Below, in pieces: positions 5,701 through 29,861 of a stretch of 64,000 nt of DNA. The first letter of the stretch is position 1. Each line of letters opens with the position of its first letter. Origin of the DNA: an uncultured bacterium. Its GTDB lineage: Bacteria; UBP14; UBA6098; B30-G16. Both the position numbers and the translations under genes were made by a program. The DNA lies in the NCBI GenBank assembly GCA_965552135.1, contig CBEVQY010000003.1:24632-88631 (forward strand), in the 5' to 3' direction. Under the pieces are notes generated by a model. It saw only the letters and a list, made by a program, of their open reading frames with translations, was not told the DNA's origin and did not search any database.

Positions 5701-7281
5701 CTGTCGCTCAAGCACGGCGTTATCGAGGGCTTCGTTATGCTCTCAACCGGACCCACCGACCTTTCCGGAACGATCGTCACCCTCGACGGCGAGGACGTCG
5801 CGTACACCGATATGACTGGCTTCTTCCGCTTTGAGGACGTCGCCTACGGGACGCACAGCCTCCATTTCCAGCACGATGGCTTCCTCCCGAAGGACACGAG
5901 CGTGTACCTTTGGGAGCCCGGGACGCTTGAGGTCAGCGTGATGCTCGAGGAAAGCCTTTACTTCAATCCGCCTCGGAACCTCACGATCTACTCTCGCCAC
6001 CACCACCGAGTAGCGATAAGGTGGGATCCGCCCGAGCCTTGTCCCGCCACGCTGGTGGGCTACGGCGTGATAAGGTCCTACATAACCCCCACCGGCGGCG
6101 ACACCATAGCGATTTTGCCGAAGTGGGCTACGGGCTACATCGACAGGGACGTTGGCGAGGGCGCGACCGACGTCTATTGGTATTGGGTTTTTGCGATATA
6201 CGCTGAGGGCACAAGCGGCGCTGCGGGTCCTCGTATGGGCTGGGCAGGCGACAATCCCGATGACCCCGACGTCCTTGTGGTGGACTTCGACAACGGCGCG
6301 CTCCTTGCTGACGGCGCCACCGCAGACGAAGCACAAGCCCTGGCAGATCTCCTCCAGGACGCCGGATACAACGTTGACGTAACCTCCCAGGACGAGCAGC
6401 TTGTCGACTTCGAGAACGATCTTCTGCTCTACCAGGCTGTCTTTGTCGTCACTGGCATTCGCGACGCCAACAACGAGCTCCTTTCGGACGGCTCTTTGGA
6501 GGTTTTGCGCGATTATCTTGGCGCCGGCGGCTGCCTCTACTGGGAGGGCGCCGACGTCGCCGCCGATTACTCCGACGCCCTCGGCGGCGACTGGCTGCCG
6601 ATGCTGGGCGTCTCCCTCGCAGACGACGGTCGCGGAAGGGGCGTTGGGAACGTGAGCGAGCTCTTCGGCGACGTCACATTCTTCTTCAACGACCTCGACC
6701 TCCACTACGACTACCGCACACGCAGCGACCACTACATAGACGAGCTTTGGGCTGAGGGCAGCGCAGTGGCTGTGCTGCTTTCGCAGGATACACCGCCGCC
6801 GAACGTGTCGAACGTGAGGATGGTGGCTTACTACGGCGTTCACCCCGAATTCACCTCGACGTGGCGAGCGGTGACGTCCTCGATATACCTTGGCGGAATT
6901 CAGTTCTCCGACGAGGTCAACAACAGGTGGGAGGTTCTGCGCGGAGTCTGGAACTTCCTCACCGGGGTCGACATCGGTCCCTACACCGGCGTGACCGAAG
7001 GGGGCAAGCAGACTTTGCCGCAGGAGCTTTCGCTTTCGCTTTCGCCAACTCCGTTCAACAGCGCGCTTGACGTGAGCGTGAGGCTTTCTGCACAGCGGGA
7101 CGTTGAGCTCTACGTTGAGGACCTTAGCGGCAGGCGGGTTTCGACGCTTTTTGCGGGAAGGCTTTCGGCAGGCGAACATACCTTCCGCTGGAACGCCGGA
7201 AACGCGCCCTCGGGAACGTATCTTGTCGTCCTGAAGTCCGGCGGAAGGTGCGAGGCACAAAAGGCGGTGCTTGTGCGCTGA
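2734..7281 (+). CDS. Giant secreted multi-domain surface protein (1515 aa) with T9SS type-A C-terminal sorting domain
   Basis: Signal peptide MRKTLAVVLVLLGVFAGAYA. Three copies of an unrecognised ~150-aa N-terminal module interleaved with Ig-like (SbsA/Big-type) domains. Six carboxypeptidase-regulatory-like (CarbopepD_reg) beta-sandwich repeats (e.g. TVVSIPSLGISDTTDSDGSYELCGLAAGTYTVLFEHDGYEPQ). An FN3-like segment, a GATase1/ThuA-like fold segment, and a C-terminal T9SS CTD (LSLSPTPFNSALDVSV...GTYLVVLKSGGRCEAQKAVLVR). Confidence 0.85.
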   Translation: MRKTLAVVLVLLGVFAGAYALSWRVELAVSAGDETRTLLWGVDPAASDGYDHGIDENFPILPPSGLYAYFAIDDPYNPYVTMLSEDVRGDELVEHVWRGTAGGAVDPITVSWNPLAIPLGSAEIGIGTATVPPIEWIDMTTSSSVVITAGQYFWIRFTPAASGADSPPYVVSTDPADGAADVPTTASIEIILADDETGIDPSSVLLTVNGEDVTARASFVRMGNEFGIYYAPESGFPPSSTVEVSVSAAEISTSPESLSYSFSFSTGAELAEVLWEQWITVYDVSPSGDTTAIGLSFGVDSLCTGGFDPGYDVPLPIPPGGSFYAYFPISDPDYPFISMLKRDIRGVGGEDVWIVRTGNPGVYEFVEWDPYTLPEGVELEVGVAFPPESPSEWVNMRDVERIEVSPGQWVWLRRVVAPVVDTLPPYLVSSVPSVGATGVALSTSITVIIADDGCGVDTSSVVFVVDGEDVTSDAEMTVVGDLVYITYDPPTDFPSLYTVSWSVEVSDLATPPNSALIEGYFTTGYFPTPAWACTLVFDVSPAEGSPYVVNLVFGVDEAGTDGFDVGLDYPVAPPIPGAPAFYFFIEDTLWSQLARDIRSSLDDSIVWVAHCVGVDTTWGRFSVSWNASALPEEGYFFFAVTDMSTPPAEWTPMTSVTSLDIYSDSRLFVLYTSEVYYCLSGVVSLEGEDDYSGTVVSIPSLGISDTTDSDGSYELCGLAAGTYTVLFEHDGYEPQEHTLEIVGDMMFDVTLYPYYYRVDGVVALEGVPSGEWDGTVVRLGDNVTVTDPDGYFVFNNVRSGEYAFSAEHEGFVPFDTVILVDDTTMLYVELAAEVHYGDLVVLVDLEGGGDLSGTGVVLSGTDTAYTDASGAAVFEDLEYGTYELHIFREGYQPGELLVTVDEPVETVSTTLSLLRGTVEVTVDLEGDGDLSGTMVVLDGVDTAYTDASGTAVFSEIVYGEHSLYVWREGYQPQSMDFTVDEPTELISLVLSLKHGVIEGFVMLSTGPTDLSGTIVTLDGEDVAYTDMTGFFRFEDVAYGTHSLHFQHDGFLPKDTSVYLWEPGTLEVSVMLEESLYFNPPRNLTIYSRHHHRVAIRWDPPEPCPATLVGYGVIRSYITPTGGDTIAILPKWATGYIDRDVGEGATDVYWYWVFAIYAEGTSGAAGPRMGWAGDNPDDPDVLVVDFDNGALLADGATADEAQALADLLQDAGYNVDVTSQDEQLVDFENDLLLYQAVFVVTGIRDANNELLSDGSLEVLRDYLGAGGCLYWEGADVAADYSDALGGDWLPMLGVSLADDGRGRGVGNVSELFGDVTFFFNDLDLHYDYRTRSDHYIDELWAEGSAVAVLLSQDTPPPNVSNVRMVAYYGVHPEFTSTWRAVTSSIYLGGIQFSDEVNNRWEVLRGVWNFLTGVDIGPYTGVTEGGKQTLPQELSLSLSPTPFNSALDVSVRLSAQRDVELYVEDLSGRRVSTLFAGRLSAGEHTFRWNAGNAPSGTYLVVLKSGGRCEAQKAVLVR
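5260..5970 (+). repeat. Intragenic tandem repeats of 237 bp (79 aa) encoding CarbopepD_reg-like domains
   Basis: Units starting at 5260 and 5497 are about 80% identical at the DNA level (gtcgacctggagggg... versus gtcgacctcgagggc...). A third, more diverged unit follows at about 5734-5970. Confidence 0.55.
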
Positions 7282-14971: not shown

Positions 14972-15739
14972 ATGCGCAAAAAGCTTGTTGCGGGGAACTG
15001 GAAGATGCACAAGGACATCCCCGAGGCGCAGACCTTGGCGCGCCAGCTTGCCGACAGACTCTCCGACGTCACGTTCGTCGACGTCGCGATATGTCCGCCG
15101 TTCGTGGACCTGTTCCCTGTGAGCCTGATACTGCGCGAGAAGGAGTCGAGGATCATCCTGGGCGCACAGAACTTGCACCCCGAGCCGTCGGGGGCGTTTA
15201 CGGGAGAGATATCGGCGCAAATGCTCATTTCTGCGGGCGTCAGGCTCGTCATCGTTGGGCACTCCGAGCGCAGACACATCTTCCTCGAGACCGATTCGTT
15301 CATAAACCGCAAACTCAAGCGCGCCCTAGAGGCTGGGCTTGTCCCGATATTCTGCATAGGCGAAACGCTTGACCAGCGCAAGGCGGGCAAAACCAACGAC
15401 GTCCTCAGGGAGCAGCTCCTTATGGGTCTTGACGGCATCGTCGTCGACGACCCCGCTCGGATAGTTATCGCCTACGAGCCCGTTTGGGCAATAGGCACGG
15501 GCGTCAACGCCACGCCGGAGCAGGCGCAGGAGGCGCAGTCCTTCGTGCGGTCTGTGCTTGCCGAAATCTGGGGGAGCGGGGTCGCGGATGGTGTGAGGAT
15601 CCTCTACGGCGGCAGCGTGAAGCCCGAAAACGCGGGGGAGCTTATGTCCCAGCCCGACGTCGACGGCGCGCTCGTGGGCGGCGCAAGCCTTAACGCCGAC
15701 TCGTTCGAAAAGATCGTCCGAAAAGCCATGGAGGTATGA
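14972..15739 (+). CDS. tpiA: Triosephosphate isomerase
   Basis: MRKKLVAGNWKMHKD...VIVGHSERRHIF...IAYEPVWAIGTG...GGSVKPENA are canonical TIM motifs. RBS GGAGGG lies at 14961-14966. The track ORF starts at 14915 but the conserved N-terminus begins at ATG 14972. Confidence 0.9.
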   Translation: MRKKLVAGNWKMHKDIPEAQTLARQLADRLSDVTFVDVAICPPFVDLFPVSLILREKESRIILGAQNLHPEPSGAFTGEISAQMLISAGVRLVIVGHSERRHIFLETDSFINRKLKRALEAGLVPIFCIGETLDQRKAGKTNDVLREQLLMGLDGIVVDDPARIVIAYEPVWAIGTGVNATPEQAQEAQSFVRSVLAEIWGSGVADGVRILYGGSVKPENAGELMSQPDVDGALVGGASLNADSFEKIVRKAMEV

Positions 15740-16968
15740 CGCTTTTTGTCGTCATGGTGCTTTTTGTGTGCGCGGCGCAGGCGCAGATCGCGGAGGTGAG
15801 GTTTTGGGCGTATCAGCTCCAGGGGCTTGATCGCGAAGGCGCCGTTGAGGCTCTGGTGGAGTCACGCTACGACATGCTCGTCCTTGAGCCCACGCGGACC
15901 GACCGCGATTGCACCGACTTCGACGCCCGCGCCATGGTCGATGCGCTGCACGCCTCGCCCGGAACCTCTTTGCCGCGCAAGATCGTTCTGGCGTACATCG
16001 ACATAGGCGAGGCGGAGGACTGGCGCACCTACTGGCAGGACTGGTGGGTCGCGCCCACAGATACTTCGCGCGGCAACCCCGATTTCCTCCTTGCGCCCGA
16101 CCCCGACGGCTGGAGCGGAAACTACCCCGTCGCCTTCTGGGACGAGCGCTGGTGGGAGATAATAATCGACGGCGACTCAAGCCTCGTCAAGCTCGCCCTC
16201 GCCGACGGCTTCGACGGCGTGTATCTCGACTGGATCGAAGCCTACGACGATCCCGTCGTTGCGGCTTTTGCGGAGAGCGCAGGCGTGGACCCCGACTCGG
16301 CGATGGTGGCGTTCGTCGAGCATATAAGGGAGGTTGCCAGGGGGATCGACCACGACTTTCTGGTCGTTGGTCAGAACGGGATTTGGCTTGCGGACGAGCA
16401 GCCTTTGTATTTCTCCGTCGTGGACGGCGTTGCGCAGGAGGACCTAAGCTTCGGCGGCGAGGCGGACGTCCCATGGGGCGACCCGCGCGCAGGCGACATC
16501 CCACAAGGCCCGCACGAACAAGCCGAAATGGTGGAGATGCTGCTGCAATATAAGGACCGCGGACTGCCCGTCTTCACGTGCGACTACGCGCTCCTCCCCG
16601 AGAACGTGGAGCTCGCCTACGAGTTCTCGTATTCGCACGGCTTCGTCCCGTTCGTCTCGCAAACGCCCCTCGACAGACTGCCCGACTACTACCCGCCCGG
16701 ATACTCCATCTCAGAGCGGTATGCGCCCAACTCGTTTGCGCTTTCCGTCTCGCCCAATCCCGCGGCTGGCCTGTGCAGGATAAGCCTGCCCGGCGCAGGA
16801 TCATTTGCCGTCTTCGACTTAGCGGGGCGGGTCGTCTGGCGGGGCGCCGTCTTTGCCGAAGGCACAACCCTGTGGCGACCCGAGGACCCGCGGCACGGCG
16901 TCTACATCCTGCGCTGGCGAGGAGTCGATGGAAAACAGGGGGAAGCCACGATCGTGCTGATAAGGTAG
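15736..16968 (+). CDS. GH114-family (endo-alpha-1,4-polygalactosaminidase / PelA-hydrolase-like, TM1410-type) glycoside hydrolase with T9SS C-terminal sorting domain
   Basis: Signal peptide, then FWAYQLQG...VLAYIDIGEAEDWRTYWQDWW...FDGVYLDWIEAY, characteristic of the GH114 TIM-barrel. The C-terminus ALSVSPNPAAGLCRISL...GVYILRWRG...ATIVLIR is a T9SS CTD. Confidence 0.7.
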   Translation: MTLFVVMVLFVCAAQAQIAEVRFWAYQLQGLDREGAVEALVESRYDMLVLEPTRTDRDCTDFDARAMVDALHASPGTSLPRKIVLAYIDIGEAEDWRTYWQDWWVAPTDTSRGNPDFLLAPDPDGWSGNYPVAFWDERWWEIIIDGDSSLVKLALADGFDGVYLDWIEAYDDPVVAAFAESAGVDPDSAMVAFVEHIREVARGIDHDFLVVGQNGIWLADEQPLYFSVVDGVAQEDLSFGGEADVPWGDPRAGDIPQGPHEQAEMVEMLLQYKDRGLPVFTCDYALLPENVELAYEFSYSHGFVPFVSQTPLDRLPDYYPPGYSISERYAPNSFALSVSPNPAAGLCRISLPGAGSFAVFDLAGRVVWRGAVFAEGTTLWRPEDPRHGVYILRWRGVDGKQGEATIVLIR

Positions 16969-17248: not shown

Positions 17249-18496
17249 ATGGTCAAGTTCGTCTACGACTTGCTTTGGTGGGTCGGGCTTTTTGTTGTGT
17301 GGCCCGTTTTGCTTTTGTGGGGGATCGTTCGCGGCGAGCGCTTGCTCGACCGGCTTGGTCTGTGGCGCGGCGTCCCGAAGGGGTGCGTGTGGATACACGG
17401 GTCGTCTTTGGGGGAGTGCGCCGAGGCGCTGGCGCTGGCAAAGGCTCTTCGAAGGCGCGGCGCACCGATTCTGCTTACGGCAACAACGCTTGCCGGATAC
17501 AGGCGCCTGGTCGAGGACGCCCCGAGGGGGTGCGTTGTCCGCCAGCAGCCCCTCGACCATCCGCTCTGCGTCGCTGCCGCCGCGTCGGCGGCTAAGCCAC
17601 GTCTGCTCGTCGTCCTCGAGTCTGATCTCTGGCTCGGCATGATCTCCGCCGCCCGCGCCGAAGGCGCCAGGGTGATCGTCGCAAGCGCAAAGCTTTCCGA
17701 AAAAACGCTTCGCAGAGCAAAGGGTCTCGAGGGATTTTTCGCCGAGCTCTGGCGGCACGTCGACTTCGTATACGCGAGGAGCAGGCTCGATGCTGCGCGC
17801 TTCGTTGAGGCAGGGCTCGATCCACAAAAGGTGGCGGTTCTGGGGGACCTTAAGCTCTCCGTCGACGTCGGAGAGCCTCTGCCGAAGCCCGAGCGCTTCC
17901 CCATAGTCGTTGCGGGGAGCGTTCGCGCAAAGGAGGAGGTCGTTGTGGTCGACGCCTTCGTCGGGCTGCGGAGGGTTTTTCCAAAGGCACTTTTGGTTTT
18001 GGCGCCGCGGCACCAAGATAGGTTCGACGCCGCCGCAAGGCTTCTGGAGAGGCGGGGAATCCCTTTCTCGAGGCGTTCGCGCTCAAACGGTCCTAAACCT
18101 CAGGACGCGGCGTTTCTGATAGATACGCTGGGCGAGCTTGGGAAGTTCTATTCGTGGGGCGATATAGCGATAGTTGGCGGCACCTTCGCCGACTACGGCG
18201 GGCACAATCCGATAGAGCCCGTTCTCTTCGGCGTGCCTGTGGTTCACGGTCCGAGCACGCACAGCAACGCCGAGCTTTTCGCCCTCGTCGACGAAGCCTG
18301 CGCGGGGGTTTGCGTTGACGCCGATGAGCTTGCCGAGGCGCTTTCGGGGATCCTCTCGGACGAAGCGAGGCTCTCGCGCCTCAAGGACGCCGCGGAGAAA
18401 CTCGCCAACCGACTCTCATCGTTGGGCGACCGCTACGCCCAGGAGATCTACTCGCGGTGGATAAAAAAATGGAGCGTAGGGGATTCGAACCCCTGA
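17249..18496 (+). CDS. waaA: 3-deoxy-D-manno-octulosonic-acid (Kdo) transferase
   Basis: N-terminal membrane anchor, then VWIHGSSLGECAEALALAKAL (Kdo-transferase N-domain) and a GT-B C-terminal domain (IVGGTFADYGGHNPIEPVLFGVPVVHGP). The 3' end overlaps the tRNA on the opposite strand. Confidence 0.85.
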   Translation: MVKFVYDLLWWVGLFVVWPVLLLWGIVRGERLLDRLGLWRGVPKGCVWIHGSSLGECAEALALAKALRRRGAPILLTATTLAGYRRLVEDAPRGCVVRQQPLDHPLCVAAAASAAKPRLLVVLESDLWLGMISAARAEGARVIVASAKLSEKTLRRAKGLEGFFAELWRHVDFVYARSRLDAARFVEAGLDPQKVAVLGDLKLSVDVGEPLPKPERFPIVVAGSVRAKEEVVVVDAFVGLRRVFPKALLVLAPRHQDRFDAAARLLERRGIPFSRRSRSNGPKPQDAAFLIDTLGELGKFYSWGDIAIVGGTFADYGGHNPIEPVLFGVPVVHGPSTHSNAELFALVDEACAGVCVDADELAEALSGILSDEARLSRLKDAAEKLANRLSSLGDRYAQEIYSRWIKKWSVGDSNP

Positions 18497-18542
18497 CCTC
18501 GACGCTGCCAGCGTCGCGCTCTCCCAGCTGAGCTAACGCCCC
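18470..18542 (-). tRNA. tRNA-Ala (anticodon GGC)
   Basis: The minus-strand sequence GGGGCGTTAGCTCAGCTGGGAGAGCGCGACGCTGGCAGCGTCGAGGTCAGGGGTTCGAATCCCCTACGCTCCA folds as a cloverleaf with a G3:U70 pair (the alanine identity element), anticodon loop CTGGCAG and T-loop TTCGAAT. No CCA is encoded. Confidence 0.9.
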
Positions 18543-18822
18543 GTCGTCTTTTATTATACCCCACCTTCCCGCGTGGCGCAAGACTTTTTTGCGGGCGTTG
18601 TCCACGCCTTTCCCTAAGCTTTTTAACTGGGAAACTTGTGCCTCTTTGTTTGATGCGGTTTGCACCGTTTCCAAAGTTCAGTTTTCCGTCGGGTTTGCTG
18701 TAGCAGTGTTTCGCTTATCCACTTTACGTTCTGCGTTGGAAAATGAGGACATTGAATTTTGTTCGCCCCTGTGCGTCAAGACGAAAAGATTGTTTCTGAT
18801 TGTTGCTGCCTCAATGTTGATG

Positions 18823-20619
18823 TTAACGAATCAGGATTGCTCGCTTGGTGACTGTTCGGTTGGCGACTTTAAGACGAACAAGGTAAAGGCTGCTTGGGAC
18901 GTCATTGGACGGAGTCCAGAAGACGGTATAAGTTCCAGGATCTTGTCGCGTATTCAGAAGCCTCGTGCCGAAACGTCCTTCGGTGTCATATACTTCAAGG
19001 ATAACCTGAGCTTGGATTGGAACAGTGTAACTTATCTTCAGTAAGGAGTTGAAAGGATTGGGAGATAGCATCATGGATAACTCGCAAGGTTTAAGGTTGG
19101 CTGTTTCTATTTTCGAGGAATGCTTACTGTATCGCAAAGTATAACAACCCCATGTCCATTCGTCATATCCTCGAACTCTCAAATAAAACCAGCCTGAGTG
19201 CGGAGCAAACCAATCGCTGATCGCAAAATTGAGGGATTCGCCACTGTCGTCGTCATCCACCAGAATAAGCCCCAGAGGATCATCAAATATTTCCCCATAA
19301 GTGTCTGTGGAGCCCGTTGTGTAAAATGTAAATCTATCACCTTCGATGGCGTAAAACTGGAACCAATCACCATCTCCCATTGGGGCTATGGTGTGATTTT
19401 GTGCGTGTTCGACCTCAGATATGTCGTCTAATACTGTTGCCATTGCATAATCGTTATCGCATTCGTATTCGTCGCCGCAGTAGCACGGGCTAATAAGGGA
19501 GGGGTCAGGAACAGACACTGTTAGGGTGAATTCGTCTGGCGTTTGCATGTATTGGTAGTTTATTCCCTCGAAGAGGCCTACTTCCGTTCCAAACTCAAGG
19601 AAATATGAAAATCCTCCATATACTGAAGTTCCTACTTCGAAGTATCCTCCTGACACAATTGTCCTAGCTGCTAATCTATAATAGACCTCAAGAGGCAAAC
19701 ACTCTAGTTCTGATGCAGGACCGCAGACATTGAGGTGAACTCTGGATTCAGCCACTGTTGCCAACCCTCCTTCCGAGCCATACGCATCCTCGGAATACCA
19801 TGGTGGGGCACTAATATGGAAATAGCACAGGAAATTGGGGGTATATTCATATGTGTTATTATCATACAACTCGTCTATATCTGCTCTGTTCCACTCAGCA
19901 GTAATGTGAATGTTTTCATCCGAACATAGAGGAGGAAGTTTCTCTGTATAAAATCTAATTACGCCAAGCGGATGGACGATGATTCCCCTACCGTCGTCGT
20001 GCGTTGTCATTTGAGCCGTTTTGCCCCAGATCAGCAGTGACGTTAAAAAGTACCCTGGCAAGCAAGCGTCATCAAAGGGATCTAGTACTGTAAAGTCGAA
20101 GTTGAACGGAGAAGTTCCTTCGTCATCGCCATTATGCCACGTTAATGTTCCGCTCAGGCGATATAGTCCGCAAGGCATATGTGAGGCAAGTATCACAATT
20201 ATGCAAGCGCTCCTATTGCCGAAATCGAGAGGGGGTAAATCCCAAAACCAGCCTGAAGGTCCATAGAGATTAAAGTTTCCTGTCATGGTAACTTGTCTCC
20301 CCCATCCTCCAATCCAGTCGGTGCCCAAATCGCCATACTCCTCGCCATAGTGAGAGTAGTCGAGTTGTCGACAGACCATATATGGCTTTAAGTATATTAT
20401 TATTGAATCGAGATCGTAGGCTGGGGTGGTTTCGTAGATCACAGATATTGCACCAACAAGATTGTAATCGATGGTCCAGTCGAAGACGGTTGCTCCATCG
20501 ACGCCGTTGCGTATGTTGTAGAATATGTTTTTATCAAAGCAAAAATTCTGAACGGATACTGCTTTTGCGTCGACTATTAAAAAGCAAAGTATAAATATTA
20601 GTAGCTTTGTATTTTTCAT
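18823..20619 (-). CDS. Secreted protein with pre-peptidase C-terminal (PPC) domain and T9SS C-terminal sorting domain
   Basis: Signal peptide MKNTKLLIFILCFLIVDAKA. A PPC-like segment DGDWFQFYAIEGDRFTFYTTGSTDTYGEIFDDPLGLILVDDDDSG...GWFYLRVRGY. The C-terminal LSPNPFNSLLKISYTV...SSLYLVRLKVANRTVTKRAILIR is a T9SS CTD. Codon usage is AT-rich, unlike its neighbours. Confidence 0.7.
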   Translation of the reverse strand: MKNTKLLIFILCFLIVDAKAVSVQNFCFDKNIFYNIRNGVDGATVFDWTIDYNLVGAISVIYETTPAYDLDSIIIYLKPYMVCRQLDYSHYGEEYGDLGTDWIGGWGRQVTMTGNFNLYGPSGWFWDLPPLDFGNRSACIIVILASHMPCGLYRLSGTLTWHNGDDEGTSPFNFDFTVLDPFDDACLPGYFLTSLLIWGKTAQMTTHDDGRGIIVHPLGVIRFYTEKLPPLCSDENIHITAEWNRADIDELYDNNTYEYTPNFLCYFHISAPPWYSEDAYGSEGGLATVAESRVHLNVCGPASELECLPLEVYYRLAARTIVSGGYFEVGTSVYGGFSYFLEFGTEVGLFEGINYQYMQTPDEFTLTVSVPDPSLISPCYCGDEYECDNDYAMATVLDDISEVEHAQNHTIAPMGDGDWFQFYAIEGDRFTFYTTGSTDTYGEIFDDPLGLILVDDDDSGESLNFAISDWFAPHSGWFYLRVRGYDEWTWGCYTLRYSKHSSKIETANLKPCELSMMLSPNPFNSLLKISYTVPIQAQVILEVYDTEGRFGTRLLNTRQDPGTYTVFWTPSNDVPSSLYLVRLKVANRTVTKRAILIR

Positions 20620-20713
20620 TCTTACGCCCTCCTGCCTAATATTTTACACAAAGCACTAAAATGTCCTCAAGGAACTCGGGTTTACTCGGTATTTTTATCC
20701 TCATTGTATCGTA

Positions 20714-21424
20714 TCATCGGAGCAGAGTTATCCGTTTAATTAGCGTTTGGGCGGAGGTTTTTAGGAGAATGAGATAGACGCCATTGCGAATATCGTCGGA
20801 CGGGGTCCAGAACGTCGTATGAGAACCGGCGCTCAGATGTTCGTTCCTAAGGGCTGCAACAGGATGTCCCATTATATCGCAGATTTTGAGGGAGACATTT
20901 TGATCTAGAGGCAGATCATATCGAATAAGGATCACTTCATTAAAAGGATTGGGCGACACTCTTAGAGTGATTGTGTGAGGTGTGCAGCTTTCCTCTACTT
21001 TAACATAACATGTTTCGAGCTCAACAGCATCCAGTATCTCATCAGGTTCGGTAGGTTCGTAGTCATCGTCCCAATAGACTACAAAGTAAATGGGCAGGTT
21101 GGCATAAGTGGGTATGGTAATCAAGCCTTCAGGAGGATAGGGACAGGTAACTGTCGTTTCAGTAGGGGAGTATCCTCCGCGAGCAATTGCATGATACGAA
21201 TGGAAAAAGTCGGTATCTGCATCCATTACTGCGACATATAAATGCAAGCTGTCATTGGAGGGCAGATTCCACCAATGCAAGGTAAACTCGCAGGAGTACG
21301 GTTCTCCGAGTGCGCAGCATGGAAAATCAGGGGCTATAAACTCAGCTCCCAGGCCCCATATGAGGGGACTTGTGAGTGTAATGAAAGGCGTTAGGATCAA
21401 AAGTCTTTTCGGCAAATTCTCCAT
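20714..21424 (-). CDS. Small secreted hypothetical protein with T9SS C-terminal sorting domain
   Basis: Signal peptide, an unknown roughly 130-aa N-domain, then ITLRVSPNPFNEVILIRYDL...NGVYLILLKTSAQTLIKRITLLR. It lies in the low-GC islet. Confidence 0.65.
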   Translation of the reverse strand: MENLPKRLLILTPFITLTSPLIWGLGAEFIAPDFPCCALGEPYSCEFTLHWWNLPSNDSLHLYVAVMDADTDFFHSYHAIARGGYSPTETTVTCPYPPEGLITIPTYANLPIYFVVYWDDDYEPTEPDEILDAVELETCYVKVEESCTPHTITLRVSPNPFNEVILIRYDLPLDQNVSLKICDIMGHPVAALRNEHLSAGSHTTFWTPSDDIRNGVYLILLKTSAQTLIKRITLLR

Positions 21425-21765
21425 CTTTCACCTCCTGACCAAAAGGGTTTTGCCGACCAAATAGGTTCTGGTCGTAGTTGGAAGGAGTTTTTTCACTTCT
21501 TCCGACCCGCTCACGCAGGATTGAATCCGGGCTGTACTGACGGATTCTCGAATTTCTTTCTAGACCTTTAATTTAAAAATATGGATTTTCCTCACTAAAG
21601 TCAAGAACAAGGATTCGGTTTCTTTATTTTTAACGAGATGGAATTTGCCCTCGACATCCCGATGGAATACGTGGATTGACCGCTGAAGGGGTGAACTGAG
21701 ATTGCTTTCGTACGTTTCCGTCGCCCCGACGGCGCCTGCGCACAAACGCAACGACACCCGCGGCA

Positions 21766-23082
21766 TCAGCTCTTCCCAACGACCGAGACGTTATCGAGCC
21801 GTATGTAGGGCGCGAAATATCTGTCGAACCACCTTCCCTCGCGGCTTATGGCGGTGATCTCCTTTAGGTTCTGGTATATGTTTCCGGCGATGGCGGCGTT
21901 TTTGATTCTTCCTGTGATCTCGCCGTCCTCGATCTTGAACGCAGTCGACACGGGGTTCGAGAACGCCCCCGATAGGACGTTGCCCTGTCCGAGCCCGAGC
22001 ACAGACTCGATCATTATGCCCTCTTTTACGTCCGCCAGGATTTCCGCAAGCGGGGTTTCGCCCTCCTTTATGATGACGTTCGACGGGCTTGGCGCTGGCG
22101 GTGAGAAGAGGGAGCGTTCCGCGCAGCCGTTAGTCTGGTAGCCCGACTTTTTTGCGGTGACTATGTCGAATATGAAGTTTTTGAGCACGCCTTCTTCGAC
22201 AAGGGCGAGCCGCCTTTTGGGAACGCCCTCGCAGTCGAAGGGTTTCGACGCGGGCTTGCGGGCAAGGGTACCGTCGTCGTAAACGCAGAGCTTCGGGTCG
22301 AAAAGCCTTTCGCCAAGCTTGTTGTATATGGGGCTGCTTTTCGTGTAGATGTTGTTGCCGGAAAGTCCGGCAAGAAGCGGTATCAGAAGGAGCATGGTGC
22401 CCATTGGGGTGAAGACGACGGGCACCCTTCCCGAGGGCACCGGAAGGATTCTGTCGGCGTAGCGCATGACGTCGTCTATCTTTGCGGCGATGGGGTTGAC
22501 CGCCTCGTCCGTCTTTTGGGGCAGATGGGTGTCGACGTAGTAGTCCCAGGCCATGTAGATATCGCCCTCTTTCATCCTAATGATGACGCCCGAGAGGGAG
22601 AACTCGGTGGCTTCGTATGCGCCGTCGAATCCCTCGGTGTTGACGACGTGTATGCGCTTTACCCCCGATGTGGCGGCGACCTCCATGTCGCAGTCGGAGC
22701 GGTACTTCTCGAGCCTCGCCCTGAGCTCCTTGCAGAATTCAACGAGCGTTGAAACCGTTGCCGACTCAACGCGGGGGTCGTAGATGTCAAGCTTTGGGAC
22801 CTCCGTTTTGCCGGGGAAGGTTATATCCACTTTTTCGCTTATTTTGGCTGCGTTTAGGGCGTCGTCGATTATTTTTTCTGCGGCGTTTTCGTCGGTTGTG
22901 GCGGCGGTTCCGATTCTGCCGCCCACATTCAGCCGGACTGCCCAGCCGCGCAGGCGGCTGCTACTGCTGCTGTGCACCTTCCATCCCTTGAAGTGCAGCG
23001 CCCGCGAAACGCCGTCTACGTGGTATACCTCCGCCGAATCCGATACCTTGCTCGCCCTCTCGAGTATATCGTAGATATCCAT
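21766..23082 (-). CDS. pmbA: TldE/PmbA-family metalloprotease subunit
   Basis: TldD/PmbA-fold protein lacking the HExxxH motif, which is typical of the PmbA partner. It lies immediately downstream of tldD. A strong RBS GAAAGGAG precedes ATG 23082. The track ORF starts upstream at 23115. Confidence 0.85.
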   Translation of the reverse strand: MDIYDILERASKVSDSAEVYHVDGVSRALHFKGWKVHSSSSSRLRGWAVRLNVGGRIGTAATTDENAAEKIIDDALNAAKISEKVDITFPGKTEVPKLDIYDPRVESATVSTLVEFCKELRARLEKYRSDCDMEVAATSGVKRIHVVNTEGFDGAYEATEFSLSGVIIRMKEGDIYMAWDYYVDTHLPQKTDEAVNPIAAKIDDVMRYADRILPVPSGRVPVVFTPMGTMLLLIPLLAGLSGNNIYTKSSPIYNKLGERLFDPKLCVYDDGTLARKPASKPFDCEGVPKRRLALVEEGVLKNFIFDIVTAKKSGYQTNGCAERSLFSPPAPSPSNVIIKEGETPLAEILADVKEGIMIESVLGLGQGNVLSGAFSNPVSTAFKIEDGEITGRIKNAAIAGNIYQNLKEITAISREGRWFDRYFAPYIRLDNVSVVGKS

Positions 23083-23101
23083 GCTGCGCTCCTTTCGGTT
23101 T

Positions 23102-24478
23102 TTATCTTCCAGCAATGATCACGTTTCTTATCCTTATGTGTGGGCTTCCTTCGGCTGTGGGGACGGCTTGACCGGCTTTACCGCAAAAGCCTGCGTTGGG
23201 GCTCCAGGTGAAGTCGTCTGCTATCTGTTCGATGTTGGCGAGCGTTTCGAAGAGGTTTCCCTGCAGAACGACGTCGCGGACCATCTCGGCGAGCTTGCCG
23301 TCCCTTATCATGTAGCCGTAGCCCGCCGAGAACGAGAAGTTCTCGAGCTGGGTTTGTCCGCCGTAGGCGTCGATGGCGTATACGCCGAGCTTTATCCCGT
23401 CGAATATTTGGTCTGCGGGGTGTGGTCCTGCCTCGATGGCTGTGTTGGTCATCCTCACGATGGGTGGATGGCTGTAGCTTTCGGCGCGGGCGTTCCCTGT
23501 GGGCTTTTCGCCAAGCTTCGCCGCCGTCTGGCGCGAGTGAAGTCTGCCGACGAGAACGCCCTCCCTTATCAAATACGTCCGCTCCGCCGGAACACCCTCG
23601 TCGTCGTACGTGATCGTCCCCCTTATCTCGGGCATAACGGAGCCGTCGTCGAACACGTTGAGGAACTCGGGACCGAAGCGCCTGCCGAGCTTCATCATCT
23701 CCTGCGCCTGCGGGTTCTCCTCTATATGGTCAGCCTCGGAGAGGTGTCCGAAGGCTTCGTGGATGAAGACGCCGGCAAGCGTTGGGTCGAGGACGACGGT
23801 GTAAATTCCCCCCTTGACCGGCTCGGCTTCGAGCAAACCCAGCGCTGTGTCCACAACCTTTTTGACCATTCCGTCGAGCTTGAGGAGGTCCCCAAACGAG
23901 CTTCGGGATGCGAAGCTATCGTGAGCCGACTGGACGAGGTCGCCTTTTCGTGCTCTTACGGCGCATCGCAGGCTGCAGTCGGCGCGCGAGCGAAGGATGT
24001 GCGCACCCTCGGTGGTCACAAAGAACCCCTCGGTGAAGCTCTCGCTGTAGCGCAGTGAACGCTCTATTATCCTGTCGCCGCCTTCTGCGACAAGCTCGTC
24101 GTACCTGCGCAAAAGCTCGTTCTTCTCGGCGACGGAGTGGCTGCGGAAGTCGTCGGAGATCTTAGCTTTCACCTCGTCCTCGACCGGCTCGACCTCGGCA
24201 AGCTTTATGGGTTCGTCGGGTATCAGGGCTTTGGATGCGTCAAGCGCGTCGGCAACGGCTTTCTCGATGTCGTCGACGCTGTTGAACGAGGCGAAGCCCC
24301 AGCCATGTCCGGGCAGAAGAACCCGAACGGCGCCGCCCATGTCAACCGATGGGCTTGCCGACTCAAGAACACCGTTTTTCAAAAGCATCGAAAACGATGT
24401 GGTCCTCTGAAACCTAAGCTCCCCGTAGCCCTCTATCTTCCGCAGAGCCTGTGTTGCCCTGTCGAGGATATCGTCCAT
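23102..24478 (-). CDS. tldD: TldD metalloprotease
   Basis: HEAFGH zinc-binding motif (VFIHEAFGHLSEADHI) plus the conserved C-terminal GxxxxxG TldD fold, over its full length. Confidence 0.9.
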   Translation of the reverse strand: MDDILDRATQALRKIEGYGELRFQRTTSFSMLLKNGVLESASPSVDMGGAVRVLLPGHGWGFASFNSVDDIEKAVADALDASKALIPDEPIKLAEVEPVEDEVKAKISDDFRSHSVAEKNELLRRYDELVAEGGDRIIERSLRYSESFTEGFFVTTEGAHILRSRADCSLRCAVRARKGDLVQSAHDSFASRSSFGDLLKLDGMVKKVVDTALGLLEAEPVKGGIYTVVLDPTLAGVFIHEAFGHLSEADHIEENPQAQEMMKLGRRFGPEFLNVFDDGSVMPEIRGTITYDDEGVPAERTYLIREGVLVGRLHSRQTAAKLGEKPTGNARAESYSHPPIVRMTNTAIEAGPHPADQIFDGIKLGVYAIDAYGGQTQLENFSFSAGYGYMIRDGKLAEMVRDVVLQGNLFETLANIEQIADDFTWSPNAGFCGKAGQAVPTAEGSPHIRIRNVIIAGR

Positions 24479-24493
24479 TTTGACCTCCGGGTG

Positions 24494-25669
24494 TTATTCG
24501 CTTTCGACGTGGGTCATAGCCCCCTCCAGGCGGGGGATGAGTTCTTCGCCGAAGAAGTCGGCGACGAAGCTTGAGACTGCTTTCCTCATTTCGTTCAGGA
24601 AGTTTTTCACGCTGAACCTTCGGGCATTTTGTGCGGCAAGCTCGGGGTCGAACTTCATCTGTTCGAACCTGACGACGGCGTCTATAAGCGCCTCGGGCGT
24701 AGGCTCGTGGAAGAAGAGTCCCGTTACGCCGTCGATGACCGTCTCGGTGACGCCGCCCTTGCCGTACGCTATGACGGGTCTGCCGGCCGCCTGGCTTTCG
24801 ACGGGAACCATACCGAAGTCCTCCTCGCCGGGGAAGATGACGGCTCTGGCGTGCCGCAAAAGCTCAACCTTCTTCTCCTTCGTGACGAAGCCCAAGAACT
24901 TAATGTTGGGTTTGGACATCCTCTGCAGGCGTTTGAGCTGCGGTCCTGTGCCCGCGACCAAAAGCCGCTTCCCGAGCCTGTTGAAAGCCCTTACGGCTAT
25001 GTCGATCCTCTTGTACGGAACGAGCCGCGACAGACAGAGGTAGTAGTCCCCGACCTCGTCGGCGGGTGTTATGTGCGCTATCTCGACGGGCGGGTAGACG
25101 ACCACGGCGTCGCGCCTGTAGAATTTCGAGATCCTCCTGCGAACCGTCTCGGAGTTGGCGATGAAGTAGTCGACGCGGTCAGCCGAAGCCTTATCCCAAA
25201 GGCGAAGGTAGTTGAAGGCAAAAGGGTAGACGAGCTTGCTTATGAACTTCGAGTAGCTCTGCTTGTATTCGAAGTAAAGTTCCCAGGCCTGTCTCATCGG
25301 CGTGTGGCAGTAGCATATATGCAGGGTATCGCTGCGGGTGAGGACACCTTTCGACCACAGGTACGATGAGCTTATTACGAGGTCGTAGCCGCGCAGGTCG
25401 ATCTGCTCGACCATCGTCGGGTAGAGCAGGAGGTAGTATTTGTAGAGTTTTCGCTTGAACGGCAGAAACCTGCTCCATCCAACGGGTCTTATGTCCCATC
25501 CTCTGAAGTCGGGGGGGACGAGCTTTGGGTCGTATATCAGCGTGTAGACGGGTGCCGCAGGGAAGAGGTGATGCAGCCACCTCAGAACCGTCTCGGCTCC
25601 GCCGCTTTGGTTCAGGTAGTCGTGGACGAGCGCCACACGAAAAGCTTTTTCGCCTATGAAGCTCATCAA
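24494..25669 (-). CDS. GT4-family glycosyltransferase
   Basis: GT-B fold with the C-terminal EEDFGMVPVESQAAGRPVIAYGKGGVTETV (E-x7-E-like) motif typical of GT4. Confidence 0.85.
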   Translation of the reverse strand: MMSFIGEKAFRVALVHDYLNQSGGAETVLRWLHHLFPAAPVYTLIYDPKLVPPDFRGWDIRPVGWSRFLPFKRKLYKYYLLLYPTMVEQIDLRGYDLVISSSYLWSKGVLTRSDTLHICYCHTPMRQAWELYFEYKQSYSKFISKLVYPFAFNYLRLWDKASADRVDYFIANSETVRRRISKFYRRDAVVVYPPVEIAHITPADEVGDYYLCLSRLVPYKRIDIAVRAFNRLGKRLLVAGTGPQLKRLQRMSKPNIKFLGFVTKEKKVELLRHARAVIFPGEEDFGMVPVESQAAGRPVIAYGKGGVTETVIDGVTGLFFHEPTPEALIDAVVRFEQMKFDPELAAQNARRFSVKNFLNEMRKAVSSFVADFFGEELIPRLEGAMTHVESE

Positions 25670-25698: not shown

Positions 25699-26829
25699 CT
25701 ATCGCAAGCGGAATACGAAGCCGTCCTGTGTGGAGAGGAAGATGCTTTTCCCGTCGGATGCTGGAGGTTGCCTCACCTTCTTTCCGATGTCGAGTTCGCC
25801 CCGCACTGTGCCGTCTTCGATCGAGATCAGGAAGATCCTTCCCGCGTACGTTGCCACGACTGCGTCGTCGCCCACAAGGATCGGCGGTGCAGCCACAACC
25901 GACGAGAGGTTTGTGCGCCACAGGGGCTCTCCGAGCGCGTTTACGCAAAGCACGTTGCCGCTCGTTGTGGCGGCTACGATGAGTTCTTCGCGCGCCGCCG
26001 GCGCAAGGAGTCGCAGACCGAGCTCTTTTCTCCACAGCGTCGAGCCGTCGTCCCTTTTGAGGGCAGAGATGGCGTTGTCGCTCGCTGCGATAACCGCTTT
26101 CCCAGCAAGCGCGACGGCTGTGACGGCGTGCTCAACCCGCCTCCGCCAGATGACGTCGCCGCCGGTTGTGACCGCGCAGACCAAGTTTCCCGCGGCAACC
26201 CAGAGCGTATCGCCACATACGGCTGGTTGCGCCAGTGCGGGTCCTCCGAGGTCGAGCTTCAGCGTTGTCTGCCCCGTCGCCGCCGAAAGCAAAAAGAGCC
26301 TCCCCGAGAGGGTTGCCAGCGCAAGCAGGGAGCCCACAGGCGCCGGTGTGGTTGCGACGTCGCCGGCAAACCTTCGCCAAATCAGCTTGTCGCGCAACAG
26401 GTTATAGACGCCGACGCGGTTCCAGTTGCCGAAGCCCGCGAAGATCATAAGCGAGTCGCGGAGGGTCGGCGGCAGCTGCATCGGCGTGTCGACCCAAAGC
26501 CTTGCGGCGGGCTTCCCCGTTGCCGCGTCGAGCGCCACAACGTACTTCGACGGCGTCCCCACGAAGACGAGCTCACCGTAAATCGTTGGCGCCGTGGGAT
26601 CGAGGGAGCGGATATCCGTCCTCCAGGCGATGTCAAGCCTACGGGAAAGCGTCCCCTCCGTTGCGCCGCTGTTTCCGACGTCGTGTCGCGGCAAGGGCCA
26701 TTCGCCGGCCCGGGCTATGTCCTCTGCCGTAAGCAGCGGTTTTCGGGTGCAGCCCGTGACAAGCGCAGCCAAAAGCGCAAGCACAAGGGCAGACTTCGCG
26801 TATCGCCGCCCTGAAGCAGGCGAGTTCAT
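25699..26829 (-). CDS. PQQ-like beta-propeller repeat lipoprotein (BamB-like)
   Basis: Start MNSPASGRRYAKSALVLALLAALVTGC, with a lipobox LVTGC. Repeated LWR/VWRR...G beta-propeller blades. Its start overlaps the stop of the upstream giant gene as ATGA at 26829. The track ORF extends further upstream (to 27294) through R-rich sequence, which is unlikely to be real. Confidence 0.7.
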   Translation of the reverse strand: MNSPASGRRYAKSALVLALLAALVTGCTRKPLLTAEDIARAGEWPLPRHDVGNSGATEGTLSRRLDIAWRTDIRSLDPTAPTIYGELVFVGTPSKYVVALDAATGKPAARLWVDTPMQLPPTLRDSLMIFAGFGNWNRVGVYNLLRDKLIWRRFAGDVATTPAPVGSLLALATLSGRLFLLSAATGQTTLKLDLGGPALAQPAVCGDTLWVAAGNLVCAVTTGGDVIWRRRVEHAVTAVALAGKAVIAASDNAISALKRDDGSTLWRKELGLRLLAPAAREELIVAATTSGNVLCVNALGEPLWRTNLSSVVAAPPILVGDDAVVATYAGRIFLISIEDGTVRGELDIGKKVRQPPASDGKSIFLSTQDGFVFRLR

Positions 26830-29800
26830 CAGCGCACCAAAAGCGTCTTCCTCACGAACCTGCGTCCGCCCACGTCCACGACGAGCAGGTAAATCCCCGA
26901 CGAGGCGTTCTTCGCGCTCCACCTCAGGGTGTATCTGCCCGCGGGGAGGACCTTTCCGCCCGCGATCGTCGCGACGACGCGCCCGGCAAGGTCGGTGACT
27001 CTGGCGCTCACAGCGGTTGGCTCCGCCAGGTACAGGTCGACCTCGGTGACGCTGTTGAAGGGATTTGGGTACGGCATACCGACCGACGTCCTTCGCGGCA
27101 GCGTCTCGCACACCTTGGTCGTCGAGGTGTCTATGAACGCGACGGCGCCGCTGTCGACCGGGAGACACGCAGCGGGATTCCCGTAGCTCACGTACGCAAG
27201 CCCTTCGCCGTAAGCGTTTTCGACGCCTATTGTCGCGACTTCGCGGGCAGCATCGGGCACCGAGAGGTAGACCACCTGCCCCGTGAGGATGCACGGCGAG
27301 GCGCCAGCTTCAACGATGGGTATCCAAAGCTGGAACGTCGCGGGCTTGCCGCTTGGGTCGAAGTAGGCGTAAAAGTCCTTCCACTCCACCACGAAGAAGG
27401 AGTCTCCGCACGGGGTCTCGAACGGGGCGGCGCTGTAGCCGTAGAAGATCCGCCCGGCGGGGAGGGTGTCCTCAGGCGGCTCCGGAGTGAGGTCGGTCCA
27501 CAGGGCGGCAAAGAGCAGGTTAGGCAGGCTGCTGTCGGGGATGGAGCCGTTCGTGTAGGCGTAGTCGCAGGTCGTGTCGAACGTCACGAAGCCGTTGGAG
27601 CATATCCTCACCCAGGGCTCGGCTATTTCCTCCCCGATGAAGGTTATGGGCGGTCCGAGGGGTTTGGTTTCGGAAATGAAGTAATCTGTGACCGAGTGGT
27701 TTGGTGTTCCGGAGCCGCCCTGGTGGGGGTCGAGCTCGACCCAGGCGAAGGTGGGCACGAAGGGTGCATCGCCCGCGTCGGCGAAGTTGTCGGCGAAGAT
27801 AAGTGCTAAAGCATCGTTGGCGCCGTGGTGCGGATCACCTATCGCCGATGTGAACCGCATCGCCGGTGCGCCCTCGGGCAGAACGCTGCGGTTGCCAGCA
27901 GTGTCCCACGCAACGAAGTAGTACGAAAGCGTCTCACCCTCCGCAAGCTCCGAAAGCAGATAGCCGTAAGTGGTTCCCAACGTCGTTTCGGCTGTGGCGA
28001 ATGAGGCTTCACCGCCGCATTCGTAGTAGAGCGTTTCTGCGGCGAGGTCTGCCGCGTTGATCTGCGCGAAGAGCCAAAGCACAAAGCCCTCGCTTGCGCA
28101 AAGGTACACAAGGCTTTCGGGCTCGTGCGCTATCTGCGGCGGGAAGGTATCAACGAACTCGGATGGGGGAACGAATCTTATAGCAAGCTCGTCTATGACG
28201 GGGTTTTCGGGCGGGGCACCGTTGTACTCGTAGATAAGCCCCGAGGTCCCGTCGGGGGATGATATTCCCACCGTCGCCGAGTTGCCGCGAACGCGACCTA
28301 TATCCTCAACCCCCACAAGCCCGGTGTACTGGAGGACGATGCCTCCGTCCTCGGCGAGGATGACCTCGAAGGTTATGCGGTCCGTCGTCGACGAGTACGG
28401 AACGTAGACGTTGGAGAAGATTACGAGGAAGCGCTGAGTTCCGTCGGAGATGTCCGTTTTGGTGTATATCTTCGACGCCGGCGATGCCATGTCGTTGACC
28501 TTCAGGTCGTCCCAGAAGGGGGCGATAACTCCAGCGATGGTTGTGGTTGGCAGGCTGTCGTTCCAGGCGTGGGAGCTTGTAAGCGGCTCGAACGCCAAAA
28601 AGCCGTTGGTCGAAACCCAGACCGTATCGAACGACGTTTCGTAGAACGGGAAGCTGAACGGCAGGGGCAGGGCAGTGTATTCGTCGTCGCCGGCGAGGTC
28701 GAGCTCGGTTGCGTCGGAGGTGATTATCTCCTCGAACTCCGGAGCCTCGGCGCCGTCGTAGTAGTTGTCGTACCACATGTATCCCGCGACGTCGGGTCCG
28801 CCGAAGCCCACGTGGTGCAGCCCCTCGAACCTGACCGTGAGGGTGTCGTCGCTTGGGACCTCGTCGCCGTAGCAGCTTGTGACGAAGACGGCGGAGTACG
28901 AATCGGCGGGGAAGTCGGTCCAGGGCGAGAAGAGGACGGTATCGGCTGTGCCCGAGGCTATGTCTACGTACTGGGTATCGGCGTAGACTAAGCCGCTTGC
29001 GTCGCCTGTGATCGTGAGGACCACAGGCACGTGTGCTTCGTCGAACGAGCCGAAGTTCCGCACCGCGCAGGCAGGGGTTATGACCTCGATGTTCACAACG
29101 CGACCAAAGGGCGCAATAGCCGAAACAACGGCTATGTTGTGGTCGACTGGAGCGGGCGGCAGAAACTCTATCCTAAGCGAGTCCGAAAGCGAAGCCTCGT
29201 TGTACGAATACTGCAGCCCTACGGTGCCGTCCTCGTTTTCGATCCCTATAGTGGCGCTGGCGCCGTGACTGTAGCTCGGTTCGCCCTCGAGGGTCGCATC
29301 GAGGTACTGGAAGACGATTGCGCCGTCTCCGGATGAGCTTTCGTAGAGTATAGCCTCGTACGTCCACACGTCCTCGATGAAGCCAAGGCGGAAGAAGTTG
29401 TACCAGATCACCGCAAACCACCGCTCCGGCTCCTCCCCGCCGCTTACGGCGTATATCGCCGTCTCTATCGTGTCCACGTCGTAGTACTTTTGGTCGTCCC
29501 AGAGGGGCAGGATGAGCCCGTTGGGCGTCGATGCGTCGGGGATAGGCTCGTTGAAGAACTCGGTGACCTCGTCGGGATAGAACGACAGAAGCCCGTTCGT
29601 GCTGACCCAGATGCTGTCGTAGTCTATGCCGTAGAACGAGAAGGTGAACGGCAGGTGGACGACCAAGGCTTCGTCGTCATCGCCCGGAAGGAAGGCGAGA
29701 GGGGTGTCCGCTGGGCTTGGGGATATCCACTCGAACGCGACGCCGGGTTCTTCGCTGTCGCGGAATGTGTAGCCGTAGTCGTCCGGTCCGCCCGTCGAAG

Positions 29801-29861
29801 CCCAAACTGCAAAGAAAGCCAAAACCACAACCCAAAAAGCTGCGCGCAACATGGGATTCAC
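26829..29861 (-). CDS. Large secreted protein (1010 aa) with three copies of an unrecognised ~200-aa module and a T9SS C-terminal sorting domain
   Basis: Signal peptide MNPMLRAAFWVVVLAFFAVWA. The repeated modules are marked by GYxxxD...LPFxFxFYxxxYDxxWVSTNGxLxF. The C-terminus MPYPNPFNSVTEVDLYL...SGIYLLVVDVGGRRFVRKTLLVR is a T9SS CTD. Confidence 0.8.
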   Translation of the reverse strand: MNPMLRAAFWVVVLAFFAVWASTGGPDDYGYTFRDSEEPGVAFEWISPSPADTPLAFLPGDDDEALVVHLPFTFSFYGIDYDSIWVSTNGLLSFYPDEVTEFFNEPIPDASTPNGLILPLWDDQKYYDVDTIETAIYAVSGGEEPERWFAVIWYNFFRLGFIEDVWTYEAILYESSSGDGAIVFQYLDATLEGEPSYSHGASATIGIENEDGTVGLQYSYNEASLSDSLRIEFLPPAPVDHNIAVVSAIAPFGRVVNIEVITPACAVRNFGSFDEAHVPVVLTITGDASGLVYADTQYVDIASGTADTVLFSPWTDFPADSYSAVFVTSCYGDEVPSDDTLTVRFEGLHHVGFGGPDVAGYMWYDNYYDGAEAPEFEEIITSDATELDLAGDDEYTALPLPFSFPFYETSFDTVWVSTNGFLAFEPLTSSHAWNDSLPTTTIAGVIAPFWDDLKVNDMASPASKIYTKTDISDGTQRFLVIFSNVYVPYSSTTDRITFEVILAEDGGIVLQYTGLVGVEDIGRVRGNSATVGISSPDGTSGLIYEYNGAPPENPVIDELAIRFVPPSEFVDTFPPQIAHEPESLVYLCASEGFVLWLFAQINAADLAAETLYYECGGEASFATAETTLGTTYGYLLSELAEGETLSYYFVAWDTAGNRSVLPEGAPAMRFTSAIGDPHHGANDALALIFADNFADAGDAPFVPTFAWVELDPHQGGSGTPNHSVTDYFISETKPLGPPITFIGEEIAEPWVRICSNGFVTFDTTCDYAYTNGSIPDSSLPNLLFAALWTDLTPEPPEDTLPAGRIFYGYSAAPFETPCGDSFFVVEWKDFYAYFDPSGKPATFQLWIPIVEAGASPCILTGQVVYLSVPDAAREVATIGVENAYGEGLAYVSYGNPAACLPVDSGAVAFIDTSTTKVCETLPRRTSVGMPYPNPFNSVTEVDLYLAEPTAVSARVTDLAGRVVATIAGGKVLPAGRYTLRWSAKNASSGIYLLVVDVGGRRFVRKTLLVR

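Follow-up and report, generated by a model that had tools for sequence, protein, structure and literature searches.

A low-GC two-gene islet encoding type IX secretion cargo between tRNA-Ala and pmbA in a GC-rich uncultured bacterium, probably acquired by horizontal transfer

Genomic islands associated with tRNA genes, cargo proteins of the type IX secretion system (T9SS) and proteins carrying the pre-peptidase C-terminal (PPC) domain PF04151 are the described systems closest to the locus reported here, a short low-GC islet in a 64-kb stretch of DNA, hereafter the window, from an uncultured bacterium of the GTDB lineage UBP14; UBA6098; B30-G16 (GCA_965552135.1, contig CBEVQY010000003.1, positions 24,632 to 88,631). 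The islet lies between a tRNA-Ala gene and pmbA, and its gene content consists of two cargo genes only, encoding a small protein of 236 amino acids (aa) and a large protein of 598 aa. Like a tRNA-associated genomic island, it adjoins a tRNA gene, stands out sharply by its low GC and by deviant usage of codons and oligonucleotides, and carries accessory secreted-protein cargo. It differs from such islands in that it contains neither an integrase nor att-type direct repeats, in that it lies 5' of the tRNA, with the tRNA promoter in between, and lacks a tRNA-derived repeat at the far end, and in that it comprises only 3.1 kb and two genes. From elements bounded by transposons or insertion sequences it is distinguished by the absence of terminal inverted repeats and of a transposase domain. 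Both islet proteins resemble T9SS type-A cargo, as they combine an N-terminal signal peptide with a ~80-aa domain at the extreme C-terminus, whereas their passenger domains belong to no described family.

The islet is interpreted as a two-gene module acquired horizontally from a lower-GC, T9SS-bearing bacterium, a reading to which a probability of roughly 0.78 is assigned. The fall in GC between the tRNA-Ala gene and pmbA that an earlier note had reported on this DNA was confirmed: the interval 18543-21765 has 45.5% GC compared to 60.2% for the remainder of the window, which corresponds to z = -7.4 relative to 218 host segments of equal length (mean 60.3%, standard deviation 2.0, minimum 55.5%), and the islet alone accounts for the 1-kb bins below 54% GC in the window. 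The note had let the drop run exactly from the tRNA to pmbA, and in this respect its extent has to be corrected. In 60-nt windows GC falls at ~18615, after a promoter-like site of the tRNA gene, and rises again at ~21695, ~70 nt short of the pmbA stop codon. These breaks delimit a foreign block of ~3.08 kb with ~45% GC (18615..21695, no strand, defined by GC windows and tetranucleotides), slightly smaller than the interval first noted. The AT-rich codon usage of the two genes also holds, with GC at third codon positions (GC3) of 0.45 and 0.46 compared to 0.747 +/- 0.033 for 37 host open reading frames (ORFs; minimum 0.68), z = -8.8. GC at the first, second and third codon positions of the islet genes (GC1/2/3) is 0.49/0.41/0.45, and GC2 is equal in islet genes and host, so that the deviation is one of codon choice. 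In GC-normalised tetranucleotide usage the islet correlates with the host at 0.49, whereas equally long host segments reach 0.88 +/- 0.05 (minimum 0.67). The islet is thus an outlier in sliding-window GC, tetranucleotide and codon-usage analyses alike, and because the deviation extends beyond bulk GC to third codon positions and GC-normalised tetranucleotides, it supports lateral acquisition.

Compositional deviation could also be produced without transfer, if the two genes were native, fast-evolving surface-protein genes whose AT-richness is intrinsic, e.g., a result of weak expression, relaxed selection, mutation biased towards AT or a selective advantage of AT-rich DNA. The small protein does evolve fast, with only its C-terminal domain and a PC-x-CA motif alignable, and the homologous modules described below are likewise AT-richer than their surroundings in two other genomes (36% compared to 44.7% in L048 and, slightly, 36.0% compared to 38.3% in L046). 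However, the 30-point deficit in GC3 (0.45 compared to 0.75), the sharp borders and the distinct tetranucleotides far exceed the usual within-genome range, and the other host T9SS cargo genes in the window have a normal GC3 of 0.74-0.80. Furthermore, the family is confined to five loci among ~15 billion proteins, a sparseness that would require massive loss under vertical inheritance. A purely native origin is therefore regarded as improbable, at about one chance in ten.

The flanks of the islet are undamaged. To the left, the tRNA-Ala gene (anticodon GGC, 18470..18542, minus strand; ARAGORN; Rfam tRNA 64.5 bits) belongs to the host, and a promoter-like site TTGCGC-17-TATAAT (18553..18581, minus strand), recognised by eye and absent from the list of a consensus scan, ends 10 nt upstream of the tRNA 5' end. 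The GC of this site, 0.60-0.62 in 60-nt windows, is host-like, as are the first 70 nt upstream of the tRNA, which places the promoter-like site outside the islet. To the right, pmbA (21766..23115, minus strand; Pfam PmbA_TldD domains; GC3 0.75) is conserved to its last residues in comparison with PmbA of two host relatives (L004 and L005), which indicates that the gene was not disrupted. An assembly chimera, in which low-GC DNA from a different population was wrongly joined into a GC-rich contig, has to be considered at this point, since the 98.9-kb source contig was assembled from a metagenome and a second contig with the same junctions was not retrieved. Such a chimera would need two wrong joins with the same host genome on either side, the host composition being identical on both flanks; the insert starts and stops in intergenic DNA with pmbA, the tRNA and the tRNA promoter intact, and no exact repeat long enough to cause an assembler error is present at the junctions. 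An artefact of this kind is consequently considered very improbable.

The T9SS sorting domains of the two proteins, which had been called bona fide in the earlier note, were examined with TIGR04183 and Pfam PF18962. This description was found to be fair but borderline by curated cut-offs, as one protein passes and does so for TIGR04183 only. The type-A C-terminal domain (CTD) of the small protein (aa 156-236, 20717..20959, minus strand) scores 27.4 bits with TIGR04183 (cut-off 23) and 26.0 bits with PF18962 (cut-off 27), which is narrowly missed. The CTD of the large protein (aa 519-598, 18826..19065, minus strand) reaches 22.4 bits with TIGR04183 and 18.3 bits with PF18962, below the respective cut-offs of 23 and 27. 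In P0002, the large-protein orthologue described below, the CTD scores 39.2 bits and is above the Pfam cut-off, and a profile of the large-protein family matches the solved T9SS CTD chains 8glj_D and 8glk_D, although weakly. The matches end at residue 595 of 598 in the large and at residue 232 of 236 in the small protein, i.e., at the very C-terminal end. By inspection, the N-termini MKNTKLLIFILCFLIVDAKA and MENLPKRLLILTPFITLTSPLIWGLGA are signal-peptide-like, with a charged n-region followed by a hydrophobic core.

The host carries cargo of the same kind. A GC-rich protein of 1515 aa (2734-7281) with five CarboxypepD_reg repeats and a Big_5 domain and a GC-rich 1010-aa NIDO-domain protein (26829-29861) both possess a T9SS-type CTD, and both are picked up by a custom CTD profile. 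The GC-rich GH114 glycoside hydrolase encoded at 15736-16968 has a divergent CTD with 16.8 bits in TIGR04183 (cut-off 23), and its CTD was not recovered by the custom profile. The architecture SP.PFNS ... G.YL ... K..L[LV]R is common to the CTDs of the islet proteins and of the host cargo. This host-native cargo with the same CTD type points to the presence of a T9SS in the host, and as the host uses the sorting signal natively, imported cargo should be accepted. The occurrence of T9SS-type CTDs on three host proteins suggests a large native T9SS secretome.

Homologues of the islet genes were searched among ~15 billion proteins, including a word-indexed search of 5.8 billion clusters and HMMER searches of 1.84 billion representatives. 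In the word-indexed search one full-length homologue of the large protein was found, P0002, which has 51% identity and also 598 aa. Its gene lies directly after a 241-aa CTD gene on a contig of 38.6% GC (L001). Exhaustive HMMER searching with aa 1-400 of the large protein yielded four further homologues, P0063, P0064, P0066 and P0067, from three loci (L046/L047, L048 and L049). An additional match, P0065, is a repeat protein and probably spurious. The order of the module is constant at all four other loci, with a T9SS-CTD gene of 223-259 aa followed by the large gene, and all other carriers are low-GC contigs (36-45%). The small and the large CTD gene thus constitute a conserved, very sparse two-gene module that is newly recognised here. 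A scan of JGI metagenomes gave matches at the level of the CTD only (L044 and L045), and no non-coding DNA is common to the islet and either the homologous loci or the rest of the window.

The compositional setting differs between the carriers. The 3.9-kb ENA contig L001 (small protein 241 aa, large protein 598 aa) has 38% GC in the module and 39% in the flanks, with a module GC3 of 0.29-0.30. On the 469-kb JGI contig L046/L047 (223 aa and 490 aa) the values are 36% for the module and 38% for the flanks, with a GC3 of 0.24-0.30 compared to 0.28-0.37 in its host; here the module looks compositionally native and equals its surroundings, as expected of a donor-type lineage. On the 201-kb contig L048 (NCBI GCA_044449065.1; 259 aa and 669 aa) the module is again a sharp AT-rich islet, with 36% GC in flanks of 44.7% and a GC3 of 0.29-0.34 compared to 0.49-0.57 in the host. 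The 2.2-kb Logan contig L049 (small protein ~235 aa, large gene split in two) has a module GC of 42% and a GC3 of 0.37-0.39. The module is therefore found in the state of an AT-rich islet in at least two genomes, that of the window and L048. Together with its native-like state in L046, this fits a low-GC home lineage from which the module entered at least two other genomes. The second genome with the module as AT-rich islet is newly found, as is the position of the host as a GC-rich outlier among AT-rich relatives.

These relatives were identified by a TldD scan of the genome collection, which revealed four contigs labelled 'MAG: bacterium' with 68-72% identity; isolate names indicate hydrothermal sediments as the source of at least two. 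The other TldD matches are from Anaerolineae, with 45-59% identity in the best segment and about 50% or less over full-length matches. The next named match after the host relatives belongs to Zixibacteria, with 45%. Among the ~15 billion proteins the best PmbA homologue has 57% and the best TldD homologue 72% identity. The order of a glycosyltransferase gene and tldD is kept in L005 and L002 and the order tldD-pmbA in L004 and L005, which identifies them as real relatives of the host. Downstream of pmbA, rarA is found in L005 and gltX in L004; in L002 a DNA methyltransferase gene replaces pmbA. Neither a tRNA nor the module is present at these three loci. The nearest relatives L004 and L005 thus retain tldD-pmbA without the islet and with other genes downstream. 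Accordingly, neither same-locus homologues of the same composition in all relatives nor closest homologues from same-clade high-GC organisms, the two outcomes that would have spoken for a resident origin, were found. The relatives have 43-52% GC and a GC3 of 0.36-0.48 compared to 60% GC in the window, which makes the host a GC-rich outlier of a mostly AT-rich clade, and the GC1/2/3 of the islet (0.49/0.41/0.45) equals the expectation for a gene from an AT-rich relative of the host.

The proposal that secreted effectors had been recently acquired from a lower-GC, T9SS-bearing donor was upheld as far as the acquisition and the type of donor are concerned, while 'recent' and 'effector' are no more than suggestions. 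The GC1/2/3 values fit an unameliorated gene from a donor of 45% GC and equally a partly ameliorated gene from a donor of 37% GC. The Muto-Osawa and Lawrence-Ochman relationships were the basis for this amelioration comparison.

No feature of a mobile element was detected at the islet. Pfam scans revealed no integrase or transposase in the ORFs between ~11.6 and 32.9 kb and in the other window ORFs scanned; these ORFs either lack a family match or code for metabolic, envelope or secreted proteins of an ordinary type. Terminal inverted repeats linking the islet ends are absent, no relatives were found on viral contigs, and no phage or defence family was matched in PHROGs or PADLOC. An Rfam scan of 17.5-23 kb revealed nothing besides the tRNA. 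A single flanking direct repeat exists, with 15 of 17 nt identical at 18561 and 21829. It was rejected as att site: 1.5% of shuffles and 5.7% of the controls with real sequence reach this level, which is that of chance, and the right copy falls within conserved codons of pmbA. The absence of an integrase and of flanking direct repeats and the position of the islet 5' of the tRNA, all stated in the earlier note, were thereby corroborated. It is conceivable that the islet is a decayed tRNA-targeted integrative element that lost its integrase and att repeats; the directly adjoining tRNA gene, the atypical composition and the 15/17-nt repeat would agree with such an origin. Against it, the islet lies 5' of the tRNA with the tRNA promoter in between, neither an integrase nor a partial tRNA copy nor a significant repeat (1.5-5.7% of controls) is present, and no tRNA was found in the retrieved flanks of the four other module loci, of which those at L046 and L048 alone reach as far as 10 kb. 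An origin from such an element is accordingly judged most unlikely. The location on the 5' (promoter) side and the lack of a tRNA at the other loci indicate that the adjacency to the tRNA is most likely incidental.

Several observations weigh against the interpretation of the islet as a horizontally acquired module. The nearest homologue is only 51% identical and shares no non-coding DNA with the islet, too remote a match to point to a donor. In all three genomes with enough flanking sequence the module exceeds its flanks in AT content, though only slightly in L046, and this AT-richness could partly be intrinsic to the module genes rather than a consequence of transfer. The CTD of the large protein scores just below both curated cut-offs, and no sprA, porV, porU or porK-N was found among the window ORFs scanned. 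Finally, the closest genomes in the databases searched are only 57% (PmbA) and 72% (TldD) identical, so that the absence of the islet applies to distant relatives.

Under a horizontal acquisition, the module would have entered the spacer that separates pmbA from the tRNA-Ala(GGC) promoter, in the same orientation as the two neighbouring genes and without damage to either flank. The likeliest route would be DNA uptake followed by illegitimate or flank-homology recombination into a permissive intergenic spacer; an integrase that targets tRNA genes is an unlikely agent. A strong Shine-Dalgarno sequence precedes each of the two genes, and with a promoter-like site in the AT-rich leader of the module, expression might proceed from these signals. 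The products would be exported by Sec across the inner membrane, recognised by the host T9SS and then released or attached to the surface. It is a tentative suggestion, and rather a doubtful one, that the pair represents a rare self-contained T9SS cargo cassette that moves between distant lineages of differing GC without a recognisable mobility gene, and that its proteins cooperate at the cell surface, e.g., as an adhesin or enzyme with a partner.

In kind the locus is an ordinary small genomic islet, which provides no new mechanism and has no bearing on a long-standing open question. If the acquisition is accepted, it represents a clean small case of T9SS cargo transferred horizontally into a deeply branching, barely sampled, GC-rich lineage with AT-rich relatives. 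As the imported sorting signal should suit the recipient's own system, the case shows a way in which T9SS cargo repertoires can be enlarged by plug-in acquisition. A further outcome is the description of a two-gene module of very sparse occurrence and of an unclassified passenger domain whose structure or function could be worth studying.

The large gene (18823-20619, minus strand) is preceded by a GGAGGG Shine-Dalgarno sequence 7 nt before its ATG. Its product consists of a signal-peptide-like N-terminus, an unclassified domain (~aa 21-380), a PPC-like domain and the T9SS CTD. The ~380-aa N-terminal domain, which is predicted to be mostly beta-stranded, has no match in Pfam, NCBIfam, PHROGs, PADLOC or PDB; the motifs Q.FCFD.N.F, IY.KPYMV, EYGD.GTDW, GYFL.S, HP.GVFRYY and Y.YTP are common to the large proteins. 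An AlphaFold2 model from a five-sequence alignment had a mean pLDDT (predicted local distance difference test) of 47.6 and was too poor for use. The PDB matches that Foldseek reported for this model are generic multi-beta-sandwich chains with a template-modelling (TM) score of ~0.11 and were judged meaningless.

The PPC-like domain (aa 380-497, 19129..19482, minus strand) was assigned by BLASTP homology. It shows 44% identity over 118 aa (E = 8e-23) to P0021, which is annotated with PF04151, and it is matched repeatedly by P0004. Nearly all of the 59 database matches of the large protein align across this region, and most of them carry a precomputed PF04151 annotation. The direct Pfam match is below the gathering score (10.5 bits compared to 25.9, E = 1.2), and this weak alignment nonetheless spans the full length of the model (residues 416-484). 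The PPC domain noted earlier is hence supported by homology and not by the direct Pfam scan, and the low score points to a divergent subtype. Similarity to described PF04151 domains consists in 30-44% identity of aa 380-497 with many annotated proteins and in the motif pattern D.D(W/Y)F.F ... DT.G.(L/I) ... DDDSG ... NF ... G.YY(L/I).V.G. In contrast to these, the large protein has no recognisable peptidase domain ahead of the PPC-like domain, and within its family the PPC insert is present only in the versions from the window and L001. By analogy, the arrangement of an N-terminal domain followed by a PPC-like domain would be typical of secreted binding proteins or enzymes.

The small gene (20714-21424, minus strand) has the Shine-Dalgarno sequence AGGAGGTGA 4 nt before its ATG. 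The encoded protein is composed of a signal-peptide-like N-terminus, a PC-x-CA motif, a divergent ~130-aa domain and the T9SS CTD. A word-indexed search of the 5.8 billion clusters with the whole protein matched only itself, and across the loci the small proteins are alignable only at the signal peptide, the PC-x-CA motif and the CTD. The AT-rich leader of the module (21425..21695, minus strand), with 28-32% GC at its lowest, contains the promoter-like sequence TTGACT-17-TATTTT (21604-21576, minus strand) found by the consensus scan; consensus promoter matches in the scanned region are not above the shuffle expectation. In the interval 21425-21765 the frame of the small gene on the minus strand contains the faint CTD-like strings 'SIHVFHRDVEGKF' and 'TYLVGKTLLVRR*', the latter ending 3 nt before the ATG of the small gene. 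As the small gene of L001 and L046 is preceded, at a distance of ~22 nt, by the end of a third CTD gene, these strings are possibly a degraded remnant of such a gene. This candidate was rejected, since the signal is not significant (1.1 bits with a hidden Markov model; best BLASTP E = 0.11 in a tiny database).

Some details of the homologous loci may be added. In L046 (5122-9299) a third T9SS-CTD gene of 548 aa stands ahead of the module, and upstream of it a HicB-like antitoxin gene and two DUF7670 genes are found, so that this neighbourhood looks like an accessory-gene region. In L048 (8500-12100 of JBIOHP010000005.1), an unrelated genome of 45% GC, the module is flanked by a peptidase S46 gene on one side and an ABC transporter operon on the other; a tRNA is absent, and according to precomputed Pfam annotations no gene within 10 kb encodes an integrase. 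In L049 (56-2190) the public gene call P0067 runs through the stop codon of the small gene and P0066 is the second half of the split large gene; the split reflects a frameshift or an error of assembly, or else this copy of the module is a pseudogene.

The genes around the islet in the window are those of the host. On the minus strand the order is a GT4 glycosyltransferase gene (24494-25669), tldD (23102-24478), pmbA, the small gene, the large gene and tRNA-Ala, and from tldD onwards they form a co-directional array in which the tRNA gene comes last. On the left the array faces kdtA/waaA (17249..18496, plus strand), encoding a Kdo transferase (Pfam Glycos_transf_N 3e-40 and NCBIfam Kdo transferase models; GC3 0.74), and the last 27 nt of its ORF (18470-18496) lie within the convergent tRNA-Ala gene, resulting in a tail-to-tail overlap.

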